Shown here: positions 1,945-43,663 of the stretch, piece after piece
Numbering within the stretch: the stretch's first letter is position 1
Layout: every line of letters starts with the position of its first letter
Origin: Enterobacteria phage KhF1
Length of the DNA: 64,000 bases
Direction: 5' to 3' (one strand)
Sequence record: KT184313.1
The notes under the pieces: generated by a model
Seen by the model: the letters and a program-made list of their open reading frames with translations, nothing else
What the model was told of the DNA's origin: nothing
The model's database searches: none
Made by a program: the position numbers and the translations under genes

Positions 1945-2217
1945 TTACTTCCTCGTTTTGAGAACTGCTAAGATTTCTTTAGAGTCTGGTAAGAACCATG
2001 TGTAGTGATTCTCTTTGATTTCTGGATGAGTGTCAACCTTTATTTTGCACTCTTTACCAACATGCTTAAGCTGTGCTGTGATACCTTGCATAAAGATGTG
2101 ACACATTACATTATCCATAATCGTAGGTAAGAAATCAATCCTCATGTAAGTATCTTTCGGTCTCGGTAGAAGTAAGTAACCTTCTGTGTAGAAAGTTTCA
2201 TCATTACTTTGTGTCAT
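1945..2217 (-). CDS. Hypothetical protein (90 aa)
   Basis: ORF abuts neighbours with 2-nt gap. Confidence 0.4.
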   Translation of the reverse strand: MTQSNDETFYTEGYLLLPRPKDTYMRIDFLPTIMDNVMCHIFMQGITAQLKHVGKECKIKVDTHPEIKENHYTWFLPDSKEILAVLKTRK

Positions 2218-2483
2218 TACTGCTTATTCCCTAATAAAATCATATCAATAAGGTTATTAGCTTTGATTGTGCACTGGTAAAATCCATCACGATAGAACTC
2301 AAGGGCTGCTGCCACATCACTACCAGTATTACCTTTGATAGTAAATCTTGAATCTTCTTGAGTGTACTTATCACTCTCACTTACTTGGGAGTTTTTGAAT
2401 GTACTGTTCACTTTGTTCGTTGAACACCCTGACATAATTATCAGTAACACAAACATTATAAAACTCTGGCTTAGTTTTTTCAT
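2217..2483 (-). CDS. Lipoprotein; candidate o-spanin (Rz1-like)
   Basis: Signal peptide with lipobox IMSGC; start embedded in a different frame inside the 3' part of the upstream membrane-protein gene. Confidence 0.4.
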   Translation of the reverse strand: MKKLSQSFIMFVLLIIMSGCSTNKVNSTFKNSQVSESDKYTQEDSRFTIKGNTGSDVAAALEFYRDGFYQCTIKANNLIDMILLGNKQ

Positions 2484-2724
2484 ACGTTAGTACCTCTTTT
2501 GTGTGCTTATTCTTAGCAAGCACATCTTTCAAATCATTTTTGTAATTGGTGCTGAGTGTGGCTAAACCTTCCTGATAAGCATCTTTGGCAACACTTATTA
2601 GTTTCTCATTATTTAGCTCAGTTTCAGCAACTTGGTAGTCTCTGTAAGAGTATCCTCCCCAGACACCTGTCCCAACTAAGAAAACAATTATGAAAGTAGC
2701 TTGACAGAACTCTTTAAATGTCAT
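2377..2724 (-). CDS. Membrane protein with N-terminal TM helix; candidate i-spanin (Rz-like)
   Basis: N-terminal hydrophobic segment ATFIIVFLVGTGVWGGY followed by charged periplasmic region; overlapped by lipoprotein gene. Confidence 0.4.
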   Translation of the reverse strand: MTFKEFCQATFIIVFLVGTGVWGGYSYRDYQVAETELNNEKLISVAKDAYQEGLATLSTNYKNDLKDVLAKNKHTKEVLTYEKTKPEFYNVCVTDNYVRVFNEQSEQYIQKLPSK

Positions 2725-3948: not shown

Positions 3949-4474
3949 GATTTACCTTAGAAATGTTTGTTGCAAATTCACATTGAGCGATAACTTTCAT
4001 ATTGTTATAGACATCTTGAGAGTATTTCTTAGCTTTAGGGATTCTGTACGAATACCCAGCATTATATGATGCTAAAACTTTTTGTAAAGTCTTCTTTGAC
4101 TTTGGCTGACCATGCACCTTTGTCCAAAACTCAAGCTCTTTGTGAGTTTCCTTCGCAGCATAGTCAAAGTCTTTTAAGAGTTTCTTTTTAGCCACATTAG
4201 GACTAATTTTGTTACGCTTTACAACAGTCTTCAAGTGATTCTGGAAAATACCATAATCATGTGTCTTTTTATTCTCTACCTTCAGACCTAACTCTGACTC
4301 TTGTAAGGCTATAGCAGCTAGAGTGATACCCCAACCTTTACCCATGTTATTCTCACCATACTGGTAAGCTTTTAACATGTTTACTTTTTGGCTAATTGAT
4401 AGCTCTGGGCAGTCAACTGCATAAGATAAGTGTGCTGTAAACATTAAGCACAAACCTAGAATCAATTTCTTCAT
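3926..4474 (-). CDS. Secreted lytic transglycosylase (SLT domain), probable endolysin
   Basis: Sec signal peptide MKKLILGLCLMFTAHLSYA; SLT motifs ALQESELG, GIFQ, SYNAGYS. Confidence 0.6.
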   Translation of the reverse strand: MKKLILGLCLMFTAHLSYAVDCPELSISQKVNMLKAYQYGENNMGKGWGITLAAIALQESELGLKVENKKTHDYGIFQNHLKTVVKRNKISPNVAKKKLLKDFDYAAKETHKELEFWTKVHGQPKSKKTLQKVLASYNAGYSYRIPKAKKYSQDVYNNMKVIAQCEFATNISKVNHEKIKKV

Positions 4475-4574: not shown

Positions 4575-5684
4575 TTAGATTTCACGTTTACGCTGAGAGA
4601 TAAGTTCACCAGCAGTGCCAACGATGACATGCAGAGCTTCAGTCTTGCCATCCCACGCTTTCAGTACCTTACGTTGATTATCAACGATTGCTGCAACTTC
4701 ATAACGAGACGAGCGCATCTTCATATCATTGTAATCAGTTGGAACAGATACAACATCTCGTGGATGGACACGAACCTTCAGAATTGTATCGCCTGAGAAG
4801 CAACGAACATAATCCCAAGCACCAACGTGAAGACCTTGAGAGCAAGTCACGTTACGGTTATTATCAACCATCCAACGTGGCATTTCTACAACGTTACCCA
4901 AATCATTAGGTACTTTGTAGGTGTGGGAGTCAACCAGCTTGCCTTCACGAGTGGATACTTTCTTCCAACCAATGATGTAGCCTTCCTCATCAATTTCGAC
5001 ATCAAGGTGAGATACGAAGCCCCAAAGTTGTTCTACAGAGTCTTTAGATGGGTTTTCCATCAGTTTTTCGAAGAACATCACAAGGCGTTCAAAGCCTTTG
5101 TCTCCAGTCTTCATCATGTGAAGAATACGGTCAACCAGAGTAGAACGCATCTCAACAGCACCGTAGAATAGCTTGTCGCCTTTGATTGTGATAGCACCCT
5201 GAGTGAAGTTTTCGATAGACTTACGAATGTTCATCAGTTCAAATGCTTTCTTGAACTCACCTTTCACAACATGAACTACAATCTCTTGATAGTTCGGATG
5301 AGTAGACTCAACAATTTCAGATTCTGAACCATAAGTCATAATTACAGAATCACCAGTAATCATGTACTCAATCTTGTCATCTTTCTGCATAGCTTCGTGC
5401 AGTTTATTTACTGGAGCTTTCTGTACAGCGTCTTTAACTACCTTTTCAACTGGTTTTCCATCTTTCTTCTTAAAGGTCTTAGCAACTTGTTTCAAAGTCT
5501 TCGTAGCTGGTGTAGAAGTTGCCTTCTTATTCCCTTTTAAGGTTGCTTCATGACGCTCTACAGCACGACCGACTGAACGGGTTGAAGTATTAAATTTCTG
5601 TGCAATAGCTGTTTTAGTCAGCTTACCTTCTTTAACCAGTTTGTAAATTTCTGCGTCAATCTGTGCTTTAGTTTTAGTAGTCAT
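4575..5684 (-). CDS. rIIB: rIIB-like protein
   Basis: 369-aa ORF immediately downstream of rIIA-like gene; assignment mainly by synteny and size. Confidence 0.45.
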   Translation of the reverse strand: MTTKTKAQIDAEIYKLVKEGKLTKTAIAQKFNTSTRSVGRAVERHEATLKGNKKATSTPATKTLKQVAKTFKKKDGKPVEKVVKDAVQKAPVNKLHEAMQKDDKIEYMITGDSVIMTYGSESEIVESTHPNYQEIVVHVVKGEFKKAFELMNIRKSIENFTQGAITIKGDKLFYGAVEMRSTLVDRILHMMKTGDKGFERLVMFFEKLMENPSKDSVEQLWGFVSHLDVEIDEEGYIIGWKKVSTREGKLVDSHTYKVPNDLGNVVEMPRWMVDNNRNVTCSQGLHVGAWDYVRCFSGDTILKVRVHPRDVVSVPTDYNDMKMRSSRYEVAAIVDNQRKVLKAWDGKTEALHVIVGTAGELISQRKREI

Positions 5685-29576: not shown

Positions 29577-29833
29577 GTAAGCCTCTTTTAAGTAACTATT
29601 AAGTTTTAATCTTTTATCTTAACGTATTCTATACGTTATACTTTAAAGCTTTTTAAAAGCTATTAAATAATCTTTTAAGAATTTTAAAGTATCTGTATAG
29701 TTAAACTGTTAAGTAACCTTTTAAGTAAAAACCCACTTCGCAAAGATTAACACCTTGTCAAGTGCATTGTCAACTTGCTTTTTATAATTTTTTGCAGTAA
29801 TGTATGAGGTTAATGATTTTAGAGGGAGTAAAA
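29577..29833. promoter_or_regulatory. AT-rich divergent intergenic region with promoter-like hexamers and repeated CTTTTAAG / TTAAGTAAC motifs
   Basis: Separates leftward and rightward blocks; TATAAT at 29783-29788; TTGACA on minus strand at 29756-29761 and 29768-29773; GAGGGAG RBS before pol start. Confidence 0.4.
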
Positions 29834-32533
29834 ATGGAAAACGTAGATTTTAAAAACTTACATTTAGTTGGTGATACAGAAACTGATGGTTTACTCCTTG
29901 AGTTCACTAAAGTGCACGTAATGGCCTTTGCAGACTATAAATCTGACGATGAAGAGCCACCTGTATGGGTCTTTACAGATGAACCTATTCTCGGTCACAA
30001 GTACACCAAGTACATCAAGGGTGGCTTACGTGAAGGTATTGAGTTTGCGTTAAAGGCAAAACGTCTTTGCATCCATAATGGTCTCGGTTATGACTGGTGG
30101 GTTTTCAATCACATTGCACCTGATTTATGGAACTTTGATAATCCAAAGTGTAAACCGTGGAGTAATTTCTTTCAGGATTCTCTTATCCAGTCTCGTGTTC
30201 AGTGGATGGATAGACCAACTCCAAAGGGTTATAAAGGTGCTCATGGTTTGGCTGCATGGGGTGCTCGTGTTGGTGTTCGTAAACCAGAGATTGAACACTG
30301 GGGTGTGTGGAATGCAGAAATCTTCACTCGTGTTGTAGAAGATATCCGTATTAACGCCAAAACTAAACGGGCACTTGATAACGAGTATCTCAAGCTTAAG
30401 AAGTGTGGCATAGACACTTATGAAACTTACATGAGAGCTAAAGAGACATCTTTCTGGATGAGCCAACAAGCTATCAATGGTTGGAAAGCTGATAAAGAGC
30501 TTATGGAGTTTCATGTAAAGGAACTTGACAAGTTGACTAATGAGCTTGCTTCAGAGGTTGAACCACATCTACCTCCAACTATTAAGACCAAAGGTAAAGT
30601 CACTGGAGAAGAGTTTGCAAAAGCTTGGAATGAGTATGTTGAAGCATTTGGTCATGCAGATGGACTGAAAAGAATTACCAAGTACCCTAAGACGAAGTAT
30701 CGTCAGCAGGTTCGTAATGGTGAGATGCAGACTTACGCTATCAAACCTTTTGGTAAACCAACTACCAAGATTTTCAACATTGAGAAGCGGAACTGCTACA
30801 CTCCAACTAACACAGTTACTGGAGAAGAGTACAAAGAAGGCTTTGTAGCAATGAAGGATGCTCGTGCAATTTGCAATGAGTTGAATGCAAAGATTGGTAA
30901 GAAATGCAAAGACTGGAAGCCAGTAAAAACAGTCAAAACTGTGAAGTACTATAACAGCCACGTTGTTAACCACTTTGAACTTGAGTCAAGTCGCTACACA
31001 GGATTGATTGATGCACCATATACACCAATTGAGTTTGAAGTTTCTCGTATGACTCAGGTAGCAGTTGTAAAAGACTACTTGAAATCAGTTGGTTGGATTC
31101 CAGATGACTGGAACTACAAGAAAGACTCAGACGGTCGCCCTGTCAAAGTTTGTCGTTTCAAAGACAATAAAAAGATGATTACAAAACATCCTAAGTGGCA
31201 GGAGATGGTAGAACGGTGTGGATTGAGTTATGTCGAGCATGAAGGCGTCCAGTACATCGAGCATAACTGGTCTGTGAAGAAGTACACAGATTTGCTTGAA
31301 CCTTGCTTAATCCGTACTTCACCAAAACTTACGGAATCATCTTATGATACGATTGAAGGTGAGCTTGGACAGAAGATTGCTAAGTACTATACTTTGATGC
31401 ACAGACGCAGAACTATTGAGAACTCAAAGGATGATGAAAAAGGTTGGTTGAACCAGATTCGTCCTGATGGTCGCCTTAGTGCTGGCGCAATGGTGTTTGG
31501 TACTTCAACTGGACGTATGACACAATATGGTATTGTAAACGTACCGTCTGGTGCTGCTGTCTATGGGGAACCAATGAGGGCAGTGTGGATTTGTGAGGAA
31601 GGTACTAACGTTGTCTCTGTAGATATGAACTCAGCCCAGCTAGTTCTTCTTTGTAACTTTATGGGTGATAAAGAGTTCACCAAAGCGGTAACGCAAGGTA
31701 AAGAAGAGATTGAGTTTATTCGTCAAGAAGATGGACGCTATTACTGCAAACATTTTGATGAGTACCTCAACCCAGAGATTGATAAGTACCTTCGCTATGA
31801 CTCTGAGAATGACCTGTACGTTGTCTATTCAGGGACTGATGCACATACACTGAACAGTATTTACTTTAGCTTGAATGATGAGCAGGACATCTTGACTTGT
31901 CGAGCTACTCAGGATGAGAATCTTCTTCATGAGATTAGTAAAGGTCGTAAGAAAGCTAAGAATGGTATCTATGCACTGCTGTTCGGTGCAGGGGATGAGA
32001 AGTTTGCTAAGACGATTAAAGCTGCAACTACTCAGGAAGGTGCACTGACTAAACAAACTTACTTTATTCGTTTGCCTAAAATTAAGAAGCTACTAGATGA
32101 CTTGGAAGCTGACTACAAAGCAACTAAAAAGGCACTTGAAGAGGTGTTTGGTAAGACTGCTGCAATCTCTAAAGGGGGTTTTGTAAAGGTTGCTGGAGCT
32201 TGGTTGTGGTGTAAATCTCCACACAAACTGTTGAACTACCTTTTGATGGGTTCAGAGGCCCAGATTCAAAATGAGGCAATTAACCTTGCTTGTCGTCGCA
32301 TGATTGACGAAGGGTTGATGAAGCTAAATGGGCGTAAACCAGCTATAGGTGCTCGCTTATTGTGCGCATATCACGATGAGACTAGCTGGGAATGTCCAGA
32401 GAGTATGACGGCAGAAGTAAAAGCAGTTACTGATTGGTATTACGGGCAAGCTTCTAAGAACTTAGGTCTTAAGAAAGAAACACTTGTAACTGGTACAGGT
32501 AAGGTTGGAAAGAGTTGGCTTGAGGTTCACTGA
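29834..32533 (+). CDS. DNA polymerase, family A, with 3'-5' exonuclease domain
   Basis: Exo I VGDTETDGL; motif A VVSVDMNSAQL; motif B KAKNGIYALLFGAG; motif C AYHDETSWE; start at ATG 29834 after GAGGGAG. Confidence 0.9.
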   Translation: MENVDFKNLHLVGDTETDGLLLEFTKVHVMAFADYKSDDEEPPVWVFTDEPILGHKYTKYIKGGLREGIEFALKAKRLCIHNGLGYDWWVFNHIAPDLWNFDNPKCKPWSNFFQDSLIQSRVQWMDRPTPKGYKGAHGLAAWGARVGVRKPEIEHWGVWNAEIFTRVVEDIRINAKTKRALDNEYLKLKKCGIDTYETYMRAKETSFWMSQQAINGWKADKELMEFHVKELDKLTNELASEVEPHLPPTIKTKGKVTGEEFAKAWNEYVEAFGHADGLKRITKYPKTKYRQQVRNGEMQTYAIKPFGKPTTKIFNIEKRNCYTPTNTVTGEEYKEGFVAMKDARAICNELNAKIGKKCKDWKPVKTVKTVKYYNSHVVNHFELESSRYTGLIDAPYTPIEFEVSRMTQVAVVKDYLKSVGWIPDDWNYKKDSDGRPVKVCRFKDNKKMITKHPKWQEMVERCGLSYVEHEGVQYIEHNWSVKKYTDLLEPCLIRTSPKLTESSYDTIEGELGQKIAKYYTLMHRRRTIENSKDDEKGWLNQIRPDGRLSAGAMVFGTSTGRMTQYGIVNVPSGAAVYGEPMRAVWICEEGTNVVSVDMNSAQLVLLCNFMGDKEFTKAVTQGKEEIEFIRQEDGRYYCKHFDEYLNPEIDKYLRYDSENDLYVVYSGTDAHTLNSIYFSLNDEQDILTCRATQDENLLHEISKGRKKAKNGIYALLFGAGDEKFAKTIKAATTQEGALTKQTYFIRLPKIKKLLDDLEADYKATKKALEEVFGKTAAISKGGFVKVAGAWLWCKSPHKLLNYLLMGSEAQIQNEAINLACRRMIDEGLMKLNGRKPAIGARLLCAYHDETSWECPESMTAEVKAVTDWYYGQASKNLGLKKETLVTGTGKVGKSWLEVH

Positions 32534-32594
32534 TTAGTATTGACAAGGTTCTCATGGAAGAGTACCTTATACTGTATCTTATATAGGAGGGCTT

Positions 32595-32804
32595 ATGAGC
32601 CACCGTGGAAGAACTCATGCAGCAATGATGAAAGGTGCTTCAAAGGAGACTATCAAGAATCGTAAGCAAAAGTTGTTTGAGAGAATGAACAGACTCATTG
32701 ATAACACTCCCCTGTCTGGTGGTGAGAAAGTTTTCCTTAAAAGTAACCTTAAAAGCATTGCACAAGAACTTATAGACATTGAATATTGGAGATATCAAAA
32801 ATGA
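32595..32804 (+). CDS. Hypothetical protein (69 aa)
   Basis: ORF downstream of polymerase. Confidence 0.35.
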   Translation: MSHRGRTHAAMMKGASKETIKNRKQKLFERMNRLIDNTPLSGGEKVFLKSNLKSIAQELIDIEYWRYQK

Positions 32805-33019
32805 CACTTGCAGACGTTATTCAGCAACTTCATGATAACTGCTATACTCCAGAGCTGATTCAGGAGATGTGCATTGTAGTCATGCCTAGTAGGTTCGTAA
32901 AAACCTTTAACAGTGACACTTTAAGGTCTGCACACATTCTTATTGTTGAAGGTAAGATTGCAAAAGACCGTACTGGAGTACTCAAAGGTGAACGTATTGA
33001 TATTCTGGAGTTGCTATGA
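32801..33019 (+). CDS. Hypothetical protein (72 aa)
   Basis: ATGA overlap with previous gene; GGAG RBS. Confidence 0.35.
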   Translation: MTLADVIQQLHDNCYTPELIQEMCIVVMPSRFVKTFNSDTLRSAHILIVEGKIAKDRTGVLKGERIDILELL

Positions 33020-33162
33020 AGAAAATGTACAGTCTCTGGGGGAGGGTTGGTAAAGGTTTTGACTGGACACTTCTTCGTTCAAACGTTAAACGTAGTGAAT
33101 TACCAGAACTCATCACTCACTATTTAAAAACATACAGAGAGGTAGATTATCGTGAACAATAA
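33016..33162 (+). CDS. Small hypothetical protein (48 aa), tentative
   Basis: Manually translated MKKMYSLWGRVGKGFDWTLLRSNVKRSELPELITHYLKTYREVDYREQ; ATGA overlap. Confidence 0.25.
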   Translation: MKKMYSLWGRVGKGFDWTLLRSNVKRSELPELITHYLKTYREVDYREQ

Positions 33163-33412
33163 GGTTAAGAGTTGTGTGAAAGCAATGGTTGCACTTGGAG
33201 TAATTTTTCTGGCTGGCTGTAACCCATCTTATGAAAACAAAGATGCCTCTTACAGCCTCCCTCCAGAGATGCAAGACTGCAAAATCTACAAACTCAATGG
33301 GGATGCTATAAGCAGGGATATTGTTGTTGTCAGATGCCCAAACTCTCAAACAACAACATCTTATAGATATGGCAAAAATGGTCAATCACACACTACTGTT
33401 ATTGATGGATGA
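33152..33412 (+). CDS. Small lipoprotein (GTG start)
   Basis: Signal peptide with lipobox LAGC (VALGVIFLAGCNPS); 86 aa. Confidence 0.45.
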   Translation: MNNKVKSCVKAMVALGVIFLAGCNPSYENKDASYSLPPEMQDCKIYKLNGDAISRDIVVVRCPNSQTTTSYRYGKNGQSHTTVIDG

Positions 33413-33626: not shown

Positions 33627-33814
33627 ACAAAGAAGATAAGCATAAAAATGCTGTACGGACTCCTGATGGAAAGGTTCAATCCTTCATCCTGACAGTTGGT
33701 GGAAAGCCGTTTCGTTGCCACTGCGGAGCAAACTGTTTTCATAAACCAGATAAAAATGACTTAGAGCTTTACGCATGTAATGCTTGCAATACTTGGTATC
33801 ACTCAGAGGATTGA
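33623..33814 (+). CDS. Small Cys/His-rich putative zinc-finger protein
   Basis: CHCGANCFH...CNACNTWYH; 63 aa. Confidence 0.4.
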   Translation: MNKEDKHKNAVRTPDGKVQSFILTVGGKPFRCHCGANCFHKPDKNDLELYACNACNTWYHSED

Positions 33815-33816
33815 TT

Positions 33817-34341
33817 ATGATTGACAATAGGCGCAGAAATATAATCATCAAAAACTTCCGCGAAGTGTCTCAAAATTTAAGGCTAGATGATGTCAGACTT
33901 AGGAAATCTTGGTATGACATGAAGGTATTAGAATATTCTAAAAATCAGCCAATTAAGTTATCTATCTTAGAACATTGGTATACAAACTTTGCAACACCTG
34001 AAAATCATAATAAATTATACAAAAACTATGTAGATGTTTGTAAAAAGCTTGGTGTAGCAATAGTCGACGACAGTATTGGATTGCTTTATGACCTGTACAC
34101 AAGGTTCTCTGAATATGCTTTTAATGTTCAGTTCAAGAACTACTTAAAGTATGATGATGGTTCATTAAAGTTGTACAACTATGGTTATGGAAAACTAGCC
34201 TGCAAACAAGATGATGGTTCTTTTATAGACTTCTACACAGGGGTTTTTGTGTACTTACCTGAACAGTGTATGTCACTATCTGATTTAGCAGTCTCACAAT
34301 TTGGTATCTTTATTCCAGTAAAATCACACATGCTAAGGTAA
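33817..34341 (+). CDS. Hypothetical protein (about 174 aa)
   Basis: ORF 33784-34341, start assumed at internal ATG (MIDNRRRN). Confidence 0.4.
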   Translation: MIDNRRRNIIIKNFREVSQNLRLDDVRLRKSWYDMKVLEYSKNQPIKLSILEHWYTNFATPENHNKLYKNYVDVCKKLGVAIVDDSIGLLYDLYTRFSEYAFNVQFKNYLKYDDGSLKLYNYGYGKLACKQDDGSFIDFYTGVFVYLPEQCMSLSDLAVSQFGIFIPVKSHMLR

Positions 34342-34346
34342 TTTGA

Positions 34347-35447
34347 ATGACAATTCTATACAAACAAAATAAAGATGGCTCTTTTAACGTCTGGTCATGT
34401 GTCGCTGTAGGTGACAAAGTTGTTACCACGTATGGCAAAGAAAATGGCAAGATGATGTTTGAAGAGTATACAGCAGAACCTAAAAACATCGGTAAAAAGA
34501 ATGAGCGTAACGCTGAACAGCAAGCTCTCTTTGAAGTTGCTGCTAAGTATAAAAAGCAGGTTGACCGCAAAGGCTATGCTTACACAAAAGAGTCTGCACA
34601 GAATACTGAGAAGGTAGGTGTGCAGCTTGCTCATGATGCTGCAAAGGTTAGTCATGCAAAGTATCTGAAGTTCCCTGCTGATGCTCAACCAAAACTTGAT
34701 GGTGTCCGTTGTAGAATTTCAAGAGATGCTGATTCAGTCAGTTTCACAGCTTATTCTCGTGAGAATACTGTTTACAACGTTCCAATAGAACTAATCCCAG
34801 ATTTGCTTTTGTTGCTTAAATTACATCCGCAAGTTGAAGACTTTGACGGAGAGATTTATGCTCATGGTTGGGACTTAGAAGATATTGTATCTATGATTAA
34901 GAATGCTGACAATCCAGACCGTCACCTTCTTAAATTCTACTGGTATGATATCTGTGACAATTCAAAATCTTGGCCTGAGCGTCGTGAAGTTATTGATAAC
35001 TCACCTATTGTTGAGCTTGGGGATACCTGTAGAGTTGTTCCTGTACAGACTATCCGTGTAAATTCTTGGGAAGAGTTTGATGAAGCTCATGATAAGTGGG
35101 TTGAAGCTAAGTTTGAAGGTGCAATGTACCGTTCAATCTCTGAAGAATCTTTCTATGAGTGTGGTCACCGTTCATACTTCTTGATTAAGCACAAGAAGAT
35201 GCACACTGAAGAGTTTAAAGTGACTGGTGTAAAGACTGATAAGCGTGGTCATGGTAAGTTCGTTGTAGAGACTCTTCCTAACGTCTTTGTAGATGTTTCA
35301 TGGAAAACTACACACGAGAAGAAACAGTATCTTGCTGAACATCCTGAAGAGTTTATCGGGAAACCTTTAACGGTTCAGTTCCAGAAGATGACTCGTAAGG
35401 GGTCTTTACAGTTCCCTGTTGGGCTAGTTATACGAGATTACGAATAA
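34347..35447 (+). CDS. ATP-dependent DNA ligase
   Basis: Motif I KLDGVRC (KxDGxR adenylation lysine); 366 aa. Confidence 0.85.
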   Translation: MTILYKQNKDGSFNVWSCVAVGDKVVTTYGKENGKMMFEEYTAEPKNIGKKNERNAEQQALFEVAAKYKKQVDRKGYAYTKESAQNTEKVGVQLAHDAAKVSHAKYLKFPADAQPKLDGVRCRISRDADSVSFTAYSRENTVYNVPIELIPDLLLLLKLHPQVEDFDGEIYAHGWDLEDIVSMIKNADNPDRHLLKFYWYDICDNSKSWPERREVIDNSPIVELGDTCRVVPVQTIRVNSWEEFDEAHDKWVEAKFEGAMYRSISEESFYECGHRSYFLIKHKKMHTEEFKVTGVKTDKRGHGKFVVETLPNVFVDVSWKTTHEKKQYLAEHPEEFIGKPLTVQFQKMTRKGSLQFPVGLVIRDYE

Positions 35448-35454
35448 AAAGTTG

Positions 35455-35482
35455 TTGACATAAAAAATTTGGTGAGTATACT
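35455..35482 (+). promoter_or_regulatory. Sigma70-like promoter (TTGACA-16-TATACT)
   Basis: -35 TTGACA at 35455-35460, -10 TATACT at 35477-35482; followed by inverted repeats (GGTGAGTA/TACTCACC; CATCACTTAA/TTAAGTGATG). Confidence 0.45.
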
Positions 35483-36432: not shown

Positions 36433-36873
36433 ATGAATACGAAAGCATTAGCAGCAAAGTTTAGTTACGGTGACACTGTATCACATTCTGAGATGGACAC
36501 CTTCTTAGGTATTGTGAAACCAACTTATCAAGGTGACATTGTTAAGTACGAAGATGAAATGAAGGCTTATGCGCTTACACGTCTAAACCGACTTGAGAAG
36601 TTTATTGAGAAGCTTCTTAAAGAAGAGAAGATTTATCTGGTTGCTTCAATGGGTGTTGGTTATCGTGTGGTTGAACCTAAGCATCAAGCAACTATTGCAA
36701 AACGTAAAATGTCTGGTAAGATTGGTCGTGCTTTAAAGCAAGCCACTCAAGCAATTGAGAATGTGAACACTATGGCACTTAGTCATCAAGAACGTTCACG
36801 GTTGATTGAACAGCAAAACCATTTAGCTGCTATGAAAGCTAACATTAACAAGCAACGCAGAAAACCTTTCTAA
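36433..36873 (+). CDS. Hypothetical protein (146 aa), basic C-terminus
   Basis: ORF 2 nt after upstream gene; followed by strong terminator. Confidence 0.45.
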   Translation: MNTKALAAKFSYGDTVSHSEMDTFLGIVKPTYQGDIVKYEDEMKAYALTRLNRLEKFIEKLLKEEKIYLVASMGVGYRVVEPKHQATIAKRKMSGKIGRALKQATQAIENVNTMALSHQERSRLIEQQNHLAAMKANINKQRRKPF

Positions 36874-36882
36874 GTTGACTAG

Positions 36883-36908
36883 GTAGCCTCTTCGGAGGCT
36901 CCTTTTTA
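36883..36908 (+). terminator. Intrinsic terminator (AGCCTC-TTCG-GAGGCT + CCTTTTT)
   Basis: GC stem 36885-36900 with UUCG tetraloop and T-run. Confidence 0.7.
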
Positions 36909-40598: not shown

Positions 40599-40632
40599 CA
40601 AAAAAGGCTCCCGTAAAAAGGAGCCTTAAATT
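40599..40632. terminator. Bidirectional intrinsic terminator at convergent gene junction
   Basis: GGCTCC-CGTAAAAA-GGAGCC hairpin 40606-40625 flanked by A-run upstream and T-rich downstream. Confidence 0.55.
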
Positions 40633-41278: not shown

Positions 41279-43663
41279 TTAAGCAGTTCTTACCCAAGCC
41301 ATTAACTTGTAGAACTGGTTAGTAACACTAAATGCTGAACCAGAACCTGTACCACCAGTGTTACCACTAACTGTATGAGTGTGAGCACCGATACCTACAG
41401 AGTGGGTGTGAGCACCAGTGTTACTTGTAGTACCAGACCATGTGTGTGTATGGTTACCAGTCGTGTTAGTGTTAGGGAATTTGTTATCAGTTCTGTCAAG
41501 CCAGTCAAGAGTTCTTGTCTTATTGTTACCAATAGTGGTATATCCGTACTGAGCATCACCACCATTAACCAATAGCAGACCTAAGTGGTGAGCGTGGTTA
41601 CCAGCAGCACTTGTTGTACCACTTACAGAGTGAGTATGACCACCAGTGCTATTAGTGTTCTTCGTACCATAATCAAAAGAGGAAGTGGTAGCAGAGAAAC
41701 TATGGGTGTGTGATGGTAAGTTACCAACAGCTAACGTCACAGAATCTGAACCACCTGTTGTAGCAACATCTGAACCGTTTGCTGCTGCAATTCTGATAGT
41801 TCTACCAACACCATTGTTCAGGTACGTCCAAGTTAGACCAGGAAGTGCTGTATTAGGGTTAACGTTGCTGTTAAACCACGTTACAATACCTACTGGATAG
41901 ATTTTATTAAGGTCTGTAGAGTCACTAATTGCTTCTGCAATCTTCTGGTCAGTCTCTGCTTTAGTGTATGCACCGATATCTGAAGGGGTTGGTTTAAAAT
42001 CAGTTGTGTAAAGCTGTGCCTCTCCGGCATAGTCACCATTTTTGTCATAGGCATAGGTAAATGTTGCCAGTCCATTTGAGCCATACACAAAAGAGATTCC
42101 TCTTGCATGTGCAGCAGTCTTATTAGAGTGAGCAACATGAATTGCCAATTCTCTCAGTCCACTAGCAACCTGATTGTTTCTGACAAAACCTGAATATCCA
42201 AGATTAAAACCTGAAGGGTTTTCAAGGTTATCTACAGAAACAGTCATTAAGGATTGGTTTAATAACTGAGTTTTAACAAAATATCTAGCATCTAAGTTAG
42301 ACCAATCAGAAGGTTGAACTTGACCAGTAATGGTTAGGTTCTTATTAGCCTTAATCGCTGAAGGCATAAGAGTAATTTGAGTCCCAGAGTAGCTGTTGTT
42401 TAATGCCACATCAGTAGAATTTGTGCCACCCACACCTACCCACCACCTAGATACATTCTGGGTATCAACACCACGGATATATTGTGGCTGCCCCTGTGTT
42501 AAGTTTCTTAATACTACGCCTTCATTATTTGATACAATAGTTTGCACATTCACAAATGTGTTAGCAACATTAAGCTTAGGTAGGTTACTCAAAGTTGCTG
42601 CCGGAATATATCTAGAGTCAATATTAGTCCAATCCGAAGGTTGAACTTGACCAGTGATTCTGAAGTTCTGGTTGACTGAGATATAGCCATTATCAAGTCT
42701 GATATTTGAACCGTGTACATAGTTGTGTAGCAGCACAGAGGCTGTGTTATCCCCGTTCCCTACATACCACCTGTTAGTGTTCTGAGAGTCAACACCCTGA
42801 ATGAATAGTGAGCTAGTTGTTGCATTTTTCAACCTTAAAGCAGCACTGTCACTGATAATAAGTAGGTTTCTGCTAAACGTGTTAGTGCCAGTGAAATTGT
42901 TATTCGCAGCTAACTGTGCAAATCTCTGATTAGCAACTGTCTGAGTAAAGTATCTAGCATCTAAGTTAGAGAAATCTGAAGGTTGAACTTGACCAGTGAT
43001 TGCTAAAGACTTATTAACAGAGACATTACTTGCAACAGTCAAGGCTGAGTTGTATTTGTTATTGTACAGCTTTACTTCGTCAGAGCCATTACTACCAATA
43101 CCAACCCACCATCTAGCCGAACCATCTAGGTTTACACCTTCGATATATTGTGCATTATTTGCATTTTGGTTTCTAAGGCGAAGTAAGCTAGCATCACCTT
43201 GAATATTTTGAGTTCCAGAGAATGTGTTTGTGATAGCTAGTCTTGCATACCTTGCATCATTCTCTTCATTAGTTCTCATCCCAAGTTCATTAGGGCTTGG
43301 CTTATTCAGAGTATGATAAACAGTTGCCGACCTTGAAGTGTCTGCAATAGTCAGTTTAAGGCCATTTGCGTTGATTTTAAAAGTCTTTAAAACATCCCCA
43401 ATATTAATCTCAGAAGAGCCTGTTGGGTTAAATACTACCTTACCACCATAAAGTAACTTAACAATCCCTAAGTCACCCGCCATAGTGCTGCCAGCAATCT
43501 GAACAAATCTTTCAAGTTTAAAAGATGCTAAGAAATCTTGATAGGTCATTCGACGGTCTTCATCGCCAAGCATTTCAGGTCTCTTTTTAACTCTGACATG
43601 AAGAAGGTCATCTGAACGGATTGTATCGATTGAGTTTAATTCACTCAACTTGTAATCTGCCAT
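41279..43663 (-). CDS. Long tail fibre protein with internal repeats and His-box C-terminal tip
   Basis: Four roughly 105-aa repeats ending ITGQVQPSD(F/W)(S/T)N(L/I)D(A/S)RY; C-terminal HTH/HxH repeats; 794 aa. Confidence 0.7.
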   Translation of the reverse strand: MADYKLSELNSIDTIRSDDLLHVRVKKRPEMLGDEDRRMTYQDFLASFKLERFVQIAGSTMAGDLGIVKLLYGGKVVFNPTGSSEINIGDVLKTFKINANGLKLTIADTSRSATVYHTLNKPSPNELGMRTNEENDARYARLAITNTFSGTQNIQGDASLLRLRNQNANNAQYIEGVNLDGSARWWVGIGSNGSDEVKLYNNKYNSALTVASNVSVNKSLAITGQVQPSDFSNLDARYFTQTVANQRFAQLAANNNFTGTNTFSRNLLIISDSAALRLKNATTSSLFIQGVDSQNTNRWYVGNGDNTASVLLHNYVHGSNIRLDNGYISVNQNFRITGQVQPSDWTNIDSRYIPAATLSNLPKLNVANTFVNVQTIVSNNEGVVLRNLTQGQPQYIRGVDTQNVSRWWVGVGGTNSTDVALNNSYSGTQITLMPSAIKANKNLTITGQVQPSDWSNLDARYFVKTQLLNQSLMTVSVDNLENPSGFNLGYSGFVRNNQVASGLRELAIHVAHSNKTAAHARGISFVYGSNGLATFTYAYDKNGDYAGEAQLYTTDFKPTPSDIGAYTKAETDQKIAEAISDSTDLNKIYPVGIVTWFNSNVNPNTALPGLTWTYLNNGVGRTIRIAAANGSDVATTGGSDSVTLAVGNLPSHTHSFSATTSSFDYGTKNTNSTGGHTHSVSGTTSAAGNHAHHLGLLLVNGGDAQYGYTTIGNNKTRTLDWLDRTDNKFPNTNTTGNHTHTWSGTTSNTGAHTHSVGIGAHTHTVSGNTGGTGSGSAFSVTNQFYKLMAWVRTA

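Follow-up and report, generated by a model that had tools for sequence, protein, structure and literature searches.

A GTG-initiated gene between the DNA polymerase and ligase genes of the Felix O1-like phage KhF1 encodes a predicted lipoprotein of the widespread, uncharacterised phrog_902 family

In the virulent myovirus T4, the early envelope proteins Sp (spackle) and Imm block secondary infection in a receptor-independent manner. Of the ways in which lytic phages close the door on later arrivals, that by small lipoproteins of the periplasm is the only one understood in structural terms: Llp of phage T5 binds FhuA (PMC9586334), and Rtp45 of phage Rtp binds LptDE (PDB 9RPS; PMC12685063). Each of these lipoproteins, as well as the Cor proteins, acts on the protein receptor of its own phage (PMC9586334, PMC12685063), with llp adjoining the receptor-binding gene (PMC9586334) and Rtp45 being encoded beside the receptor-binding genes (PMC12685063). 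The gene described here lies at 33152-33412 of a 64,000-nucleotide stretch of Enterobacteria phage KhF1 (KT184313.1), the whole of which was analysed and is referred to as the window, and its product is a predicted lipoprotein precursor. The window is that of a Felix O1-like coliphage, as 1.9 kb around the lipoprotein gene is 99.6% identical to Enterobacteria phage KhF2 and the region of the gene is matched by 223 Felix O1-like (Ounavirinae) records in megablast.

The product of the open reading frame (ORF), MNNKVKSCVKAMVALGVIFLAGC followed by NPSYENKD..., shows all the sequence characteristics of a lipoprotein precursor, namely an n-region with three lysines (MNNKVKSCVK), a 12-residue hydrophobic core (AMVALGVIFLAG) and a lipobox, L20-A21-G22-C23, with its conserved cysteine. 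By these features it is a lipoprotein precursor and a predicted substrate of signal peptidase II, with Cys23 (codon 33218-33220) predicted to be the acylated first residue of the mature protein. Consistent with that, in a set of 145 diverse homologues the lipobox cysteine is present in 100%, the leucine in 74%, and G, A or S in 100% at their positions; the signal peptide is usually 15-17 residues long, and hmmscan finds the lipid-attachment-site model PF08139 in 25 of the members. A sequence-only reading of this DNA, which had described an 86-residue, GTG-initiated frame with an LAGC lipobox at this place and had taken it for a lipoprotein gene, is borne out in its exact coordinates, start codon and lipobox, and, at the level of sequence, in the lipoprotein assignment. 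A six-frame scan of the window for a signal peptide with a lipobox recovered two loci only, this gene and the o-spanin gene (Table 1), which argues that such a frame is not a common chance product here; the lipoprotein gene itself is present in a single copy.

It has to be noted that the annotation of some relatives might suggest that the frame arose by chance, or merely through its overlap with the ORF on the opposite strand at 33113-33385 (-), since KhF2, the nearest GenBank record, carries no feature at the locus and phage 'skuden' annotates another frame. This explanation is effectively refuted by the results on selection and by the profile searches. In the mature region of eight Felixounavirus and Mooglevirus orthologues, the ratio of nonsynonymous to synonymous substitution rates is 0.02-0.12 in most pairs and 0.34 at most, the synonymous sites being near saturation in the distant pairs, which is the mark of strong purifying selection in the lipoprotein frame. 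In addition, hundreds of homologues carry a common family signature, the ORF lies within a co-oriented string of plus-strand genes, and the gene is annotated in Felix O1, UAB_69, FO1a, Ro111lw and others, with the exact protein being present in public collections as a 'hypothetical protein'. We thus regard it as very probable that this is a real gene and that it encodes a lipoprotein of the phrog_902-type family.

The true start of the gene is uncertain from the sequence, with the mature protein being identical for every candidate start. The GTG at 33152 follows a Shine-Dalgarno-like site, which is kept as GAGAGG or GAGAAG in the orthologues and which also falls inside the upstream gene, and it overlaps the final 11 nucleotides (nt) of this 48-codon gene, an arrangement that fits tight coupling of neighbouring genes. 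Most relatives begin with ATG-TGG-AAA (MWK..., MWKAVIALGVIFLAGC), aligned with window positions 33173-33181, the ATG itself with 33173-33176, and a start at 33176 would leave MK and an unchanged h-region. The annotated start is the equivalent of the GTG at 33152 in Felix O1 (ORF91) and UAB_69, and an internal ATG, leaving a signal peptide of 12 residues, in FO1a (gp90) and Ro111lw. Among metagenome contigs related to 33016-33412 of the window, two 64-residue alleles (P0012 and P0014) share a frameshifted tail after residue ~45 (…RYCCCQMSKLSNNNIL), suggesting a natural loss of function in some lineages. In an 89-residue allele (P0008) the N-terminus of the upstream gene, MKKMYSLWG, is fused to the lipoprotein, the upstream 48-residue gene being deleted there.

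The mature part is predicted to consist of a short variable tether (residues 24-33) and a small five-stranded antiparallel β domain, as indicated by AlphaFold2 (AF2) models and the conservation profile. The models have a mean predicted local distance difference test (pLDDT) score of 71 and 64, the latter and worse one being that of the mature domain alone, and both show the same strand order in a β-meander; the mature domain gave no fold match to any solved structure. Among the 145 members the family consensus is Y-x-LPxELxDCK[IV]Y ... VVRCPNSxTTTxYxxGK, with P37 in 99%, L or M at position 40 in 100%, D42 in 84% and C43 in 100% in its first part, and C62 in 100%, P63 in 94%, T67 in 92%, G74 in 90% and K75 in 93% in its second. 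Three cysteines are invariant, that of the lipobox, C43 and C62, and they are spaced by 20±1 residues up to C43 and by a further 17-19 up to C62. The window protein carries this signature in the form of C23, C43, C62, PNSQTTT and G74-K75. In the AF2 model with the higher score, the predicted β2-β3 hairpin has Cys43 and Cys62 on either side of its base, and the two are likely a disulfide pair that staples it. An extra cysteine pair, CGKxC, surrounds the invariant GK in 28 of the aligned members, and many members end in VIDGVEY. Some members have C-terminal add-ons (P0028, P0040 and P0103; P0046, P0088, P0134 and P0161), one being a helix-like tail with the motif KL[TS]xEE[RK]KALGL, another a module of ~30 residues with two more cysteines; these may confer additional binding functions.

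Its sequence places the gene, as an unexceptional member, in a large family of phage lipoproteins that is catalogued and uncharacterised. It matches phrog_902, a family whose function class is 'unknown function', over residues 2-83 with an E-value of 4.9e-18, and the window protein matched no other PHROG family convincingly. Run against 1.84 billion representatives, a profile built from Ounavirinae sequences retrieves 652 clusters (50% identity; E<=1e-3), and tblastn finds 597 phage records, about 200 of them Ounavirinae records at an identity of at least 60%. Members occur in Felixounavirus and Mooglevirus, in rV5-like phages of 145 kb, in jumbo phages (121Q, PBECO4, fEgEco12, Serratia BF and Yersinia fHe-Yen9), in T5-like Vibrio phages of 114 kb, in an N4-like Vibrio phage, in T4-like Aeromonas phages and in Acinetobacter phages; the family thus spans lytic myo-, sipho-, podo- and jumbo phages of Escherichia, Salmonella, Vibrio, Aeromonas, Acinetobacter and other hosts. 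In every context examined, the gene sits in a long run of small co-oriented genes near replication functions and away from lysis and tail genes, and a conserved neighbour, sought across five lineages, was not found apart from an occasional DNA ligase. In the Felixounavirus Shigella phage vB_SflM_004 (MK295205), three places matched the lipoprotein in tblastn, which could be extra copies or terminal redundancy.

All homologues bear the precomputed Pfam label PF16225 (DUF4884; unmarked, E<=1e-5). This label was not reproduced when the window protein and the 145 members were compared with Pfam-A by hmmscan, either because the model is missing from the Pfam-A copy used or because the two sets of E-values are scaled differently. 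When the protein and diverse members were scanned against Pfam, NCBIfam and PADLOC, lipobox and signal-peptide noise was all that was returned. PDB sequences gave no match, whether the query was the protein alone or the family profile, the profile aligning with the signal peptide of FlgP at an E-value of 0.94; for Rtp45, likewise, the profile search of PDB chains found no solved chain, the inclusion of 9RPS in the chain set being unconfirmed. In the literature we found no characterised member, DUF4884 being mentioned twice, once to label an entry in the gene table of a phage and once in connection with a protein of Bacteroides. The former, in the gene table of phage Henu8, prompted a look at T1-like phages, and no family member was found in Shigella phage pSf-1.

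On bacterial chromosomes the family is nearly absent. A peptide-pattern scan of 185,579 bacterial species genomes returned one match, and none was returned from the same genomes when VVRCPNSxT[TS]T was sought as an exact degenerate pattern in the DNA, the scan being limited to the motif, such that divergent members would be missed; three weak matches were found on plasmids. The one copy found in a bacterial genome is located in an apparent island of Hylemonella gracilis ATCC 19624 (contig NZ_AEGR01000062, 6001-6252), next to a comM (Mg-chelatase) fragment, a gene for a helix-turn-helix (HTH) repressor-like protein, a gene for a protein of the endonuclease/exonuclease/phosphatase family and two genes for ABC-3C-type proteins (DUF2326/CTD10).

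The window is laid out as minus-strand genes up to 29576, a plus-strand block from the DNA polymerase gene to ~41200, and minus-strand structural genes thereafter. The lipoprotein gene is part of the plus-strand gene string between the DNA polymerase and the ATP-dependent ligase, outside the lysis and structural regions, with the tail fibre gene ~8 kb away on the opposite strand. The genes of this string are packed and co-oriented, with stop/start overlaps throughout, and neither a correctly oriented terminator-like site nor a promoter above chance level separates the lipoprotein gene from the polymerase or ligase gene. For Felix O1, a single transcription unit has been described that comprises genes 96-80 and starts from the divergent ORF96/ORF97 region (29577-29803 in the window). 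Its ORF96 can be detected at 5 min, and the peak for ORFs 88, 89, 90, 93 and 96, classed as 'middle', comes at 25 min (PMC3185647); this 2010 table of reverse-transcription polymerase chain reaction (RT-PCR) results is the only set of Felix O1 transcription data found in the literature. By analogy with these neighbours, the lipoprotein gene would be expressed in the early or middle phase. The placement given by the sequence-only reading, among small genes after the polymerase and outside the lysis and structural regions, therefore stands, while its term 'early' is backed in part, by way of the neighbouring genes.

The direct neighbours of the lipoprotein gene encode soluble products of 48 and 68 residues, the upstream 48-residue product having no hydrophobic segment. 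Just 5' of the ligase gene, an ORF of 185 codons (33784-34341, +) has no Pfam or PHROG match; its stretch is covered in 4 of the 223 related records (KhF2, KhF3, Ro111lw and adrianh), and in Felix O1 ORF89 is directly followed by the ligase gene with no counterpart of this ORF, which is a variable accessory gene. An HNH homing endonuclease gene that stands between the polymerase gene and the small genes in many relatives, among them Felix O1 (ORF95), Alf5, ASO1A/B, Si3 and REP5-7, is absent from the window (site 32534-32600). Right after the ligase gene and before a gap of 380 nt, there is a near-consensus sigma-70-like site, TTGACA-16-TATACT, with 11 of 12 positions matching (35455-35482, +); a terminator-like hairpin (36885-36900, +) follows a gene ending at 36873; and a bidirectional terminator, identical to t79/t80 of Felix O1, occupies both strands at 40604-40627, where the block converges with the structural genes.

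Table 1. Positions of the lipoprotein gene, its parts and the other genes discussed (window coordinates)
Feature	Coordinates	Strand	Basis or remark
Lipoprotein precursor gene, 86 codons, GTG start, TGA stop	33152-33412	+	ORF list and translation; phrog_902 member
Shine-Dalgarno-like AGAGAGG, 9 nt before GTG	33136-33142	+	Direct reading of sequence
Alternative in-frame starts, GTG 33176 (gives MKAMVALGVIFLAGC) and ATG 33185	33176-33187	+	Orthologue start alignment
Predicted signal peptide ending in lipobox L-A-G-C (33209-33220)	33152-33220	+	Sequence and homologue conservation
Predicted mature lipoprotein, 64 residues, ~7.1 kDa, isoelectric point ~6.7	33218-33409	+	Protein parameters
Motif Y-x-L-P-x-E-[LM]-x-D-C-K-[IV]-Y, residues 34-47, including invariant Cys43 (33278-33280)	33251-33292	+	
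Motif V-V-R-C-P-N-S-x-T-T-T ... G-K, residues 59-75, including Cys62 (33335-33337) and near-invariant Lys75 (33374-33376)	33326-33376	+	
DNA polymerase	29804-32533	+	
ATP-dependent ligase	34347-35447	+	phrog_114
Tail fibre, first structural gene	41279-43663	-	
i-spanin, 115 residues	2377-2724	-	phrog_1152 'Rz-like spanin', E 1e-41
o-spanin lipoprotein, 88 residues, lipobox MSGC	2217-2483	-	phrog_4180 and weak spanin PHROG match

In the model favoured here, transcription of the gene would be that of the whole unit from the DNA polymerase to the ligase, and the protein would accordingly be expected in the cell from the early or middle phase onwards. The precursor would then be exported, lipid-modified and cleaved at Cys23 by Lgt, signal peptidase II and Lnt, as in the standard pathway, and the asparagine at position +2 after the lipid-bearing cysteine suggests that it is sorted to the outer membrane. 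In the periplasm a Cys43-Cys62 disulfide would staple an all-β domain of ~55 residues, which the 10-residue tether would keep close to the membrane. Acting alone, with no conserved partner gene, the protein would use its mature surface (LPxELxDCK, RCPNSxTTT and GK) to bind a conserved component of the Gram-negative envelope and not a phage-specific receptor, the conservation of this surface across many hosts and tail types pointing to such a target. For the whole sequence of steps up to this binding, we consider the chances of its being right and of its being wrong to be equal, and the same even balance applies to the narrower proposition that the protein acts on a conserved envelope component of the host. 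As a best guess at the consequence, the altered envelope of the infected cell would hinder the entry of later phages or protect the cell, which would amount to superinfection exclusion in the broad sense. That the net effect is indeed the exclusion of further infection, by a family unrelated to Llp, Cor and Rtp45, is a tentative proposal, which we consider more likely to be wrong than right.

Several observations weigh against this model. The broad conservation of the family fits other envelope roles equally well, and the named members are all annotated as 'hypothetical protein' or 'lipoprotein', with no homologue having been assigned a function. The +2 residue is variable in the family, being aspartate in 15%, which implies that outer-membrane localisation is not a family constant; the structure models are of medium confidence only; the RT-PCR table of Felix O1 leaves out the orthologue ORF91 (PMC3185647); and the gene may be dispensable, as the frameshifted alleles imply.

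The same conserved mature surface is also compatible with another form of host takeover or counter-defence, in which the lipoprotein inhibits or titrates a conserved periplasmic or outer-membrane enzyme or machine, such as a peptidoglycan hydrolase or its regulator, a component of Lpt, Bam, Lol or Tol-Pal, an envelope-stress sensor, or a periplasmic nuclease or protease, with the outcome that the infected cell is stabilised or an envelope-linked defence is blunted, and with no effect on superinfection. Such a role would suit a stand-alone gene among small early or middle genes of the 'host-takeover' type, the variable membrane sorting signals would suit a periplasmic target that is reachable from either membrane, and the one copy found on a chromosome shares its island with genes for defence. 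However, the scans against Pfam, NCBIfam and PADLOC revealed no similarity to a known inhibitor or defence-related family, and the gene is near-universal in the Ounavirinae, unlike typical anti-defence genes, which are patchy in their distribution. We regard this alternative as possible, if on the unlikely side, to much the same degree as exclusion.

A more general proposal is still more speculative. The family might represent an unrecognised, very widespread class of phage envelope effectors, in which a 7-kDa disulfide-stapled lipoprotein docks via the invariant RCPNSxTTT strand and the GK hairpin on a conserved envelope machine (candidates being Lpt, Bam, Lol, Tol-Pal or a peptidoglycan-associated factor), leading to receptor-independent exclusion or takeover in lytic phages of all tail types; we consider this unlikely.

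The sequence-only reading had gone further, proposing a superinfection-exclusion or receptor-masking factor by analogy with early phage lipoproteins. In its specific form, the protein would, like Llp or Cor, bind the periplasmic face of the phage's own outer-membrane receptor and allosterically block the adsorption of sister phages both to infected cells and to lysis debris. The format of the protein agrees with that of T5 Llp, in that it is a small β-rich lipoprotein with two further cysteines in a mature part of ~61-64 residues, and made before lysis. Within 53 kb of the T5-like Vibrio phage D117, no lipobox ORF other than the family member was found, and the tail-fibre genes there have no separate lipoprotein next to them. 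The record of jumbo phage fEgEco12 labels its member a 'lytic conversion lipoprotein' with no evidence given; the label, unsupported and apparently automatic, was not used. The record gives this label to two genes, the family member g526 (4007-4258) and g528 (4620-4895), an unrelated cysteine-rich lipoprotein.

Against this stands the comparison of the proteins themselves, since hhalign aligns the family with T5 Llp and T1 Cor over the signal peptide only (18-19 columns), the mature-only comparison with Llp yields a probability of 0.6%, and no solved structure, Llp included (7QJF/8A60), is matched by the sequence profile or the fold. The gene is not beside a receptor-binding gene, unlike llp, cor and the gene for Rtp45 (PMC9586334, PMC12685063, PMC8594841), T1 cor following immediately on the tail genes. 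For Felix O1-like phages, the reported receptor is lipopolysaccharide (LPS) and not a protein, and they are described as LPS-dependent (PMC8594841). Finally, the same mature motif is kept across very different hosts and tail types, which is not expected of a receptor-specific mask. Because of this lack of mature-domain similarity, the location in the replication block, the reported dependence on LPS and the conserved surface, a receptor mask is improbable; the exclusion idea itself was a reasonable analogy, and its receptor-mask form is unlikely and finds no support in the mature domain, the fold or the gene position.

A role in lysis, whether as the spanin subunit of the outer membrane or in regulating the timing of lysis from the periplasm, is more improbable by far. 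The protein is a small lipoprotein of the outer-membrane type with a conserved cysteine, as o-spanins are, and one record of an N4-like Vibrio phage (PhiImVa-1) labels its member a 'putative spanin', a label that was not used, as the record gives no support for it. However, a spanin pair of the canonical, overlapped kind is present elsewhere in the window, at 2217-2724 (-), no gene for a membrane-anchored partner overlaps or adjoins the lipoprotein ORF, and lysis genes are not nearby, either in the window or in the other lineages. In addition, the profile of the mature domain has no match to the o-spanin of the window, and the protein gave no match to a spanin PHROG.

What has been gained so far is an improvement in annotation, from 'hypothetical protein' or no feature to 'lipoprotein, phrog_902/DUF4884 family'. 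Its wider interest lies in the fact that Llp and Rtp45 are receptor-specific and encoded beside a receptor-binding gene, whereas the phrog_902-type family is far more widespread and unrelated to them in sequence, comprising hundreds of clusters in phages of all tail morphologies and of several host orders, encoded with replication genes. If a single conserved host target does exist, the Gram-negative envelope would have a generic weak point there, for which the protein could serve as a compact probe or inhibitor. Cocktails for phage therapy commonly contain Felix O1-like phages, and in them a generic exclusion factor, should the protein prove to be one, could affect how the phages cooperate.

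Among the known systems, T5 Llp (PDB 7QJF, 8A60) is a small, periplasm-facing and β-rich protein of similar mature length, whose two extra cysteines form an intramolecular disulfide (PMC9586334). It differs from the window protein in that these cysteines are 47 residues apart, as compared with ~19, in that there is no mature homology or fold match, and in that the window gene lies in the replication block of an LPS-binding phage. [quoted passage not shown] The Rz1-type o-spanins share the small lipoprotein format and a conserved periplasmic cysteine; the window gene differs from theirs in having no i-spanin partner and in lying outside the lysis cassette of a phage that has its own spanin pair elsewhere. 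As to T4, Sp and Imm exemplify the receptor-independent exclusion that the model above envisages, but Sp is soluble in the periplasm and Imm is located in the inner membrane; neither is a lipoprotein, unlike the window protein. With the phrog_902 and PF16225-labelled proteins, by contrast, the window protein shares the signal peptide, the three invariant cysteines and the VVRCPNSxTTT...GK motif, and its membership in that family is direct and without a distinguishing difference.

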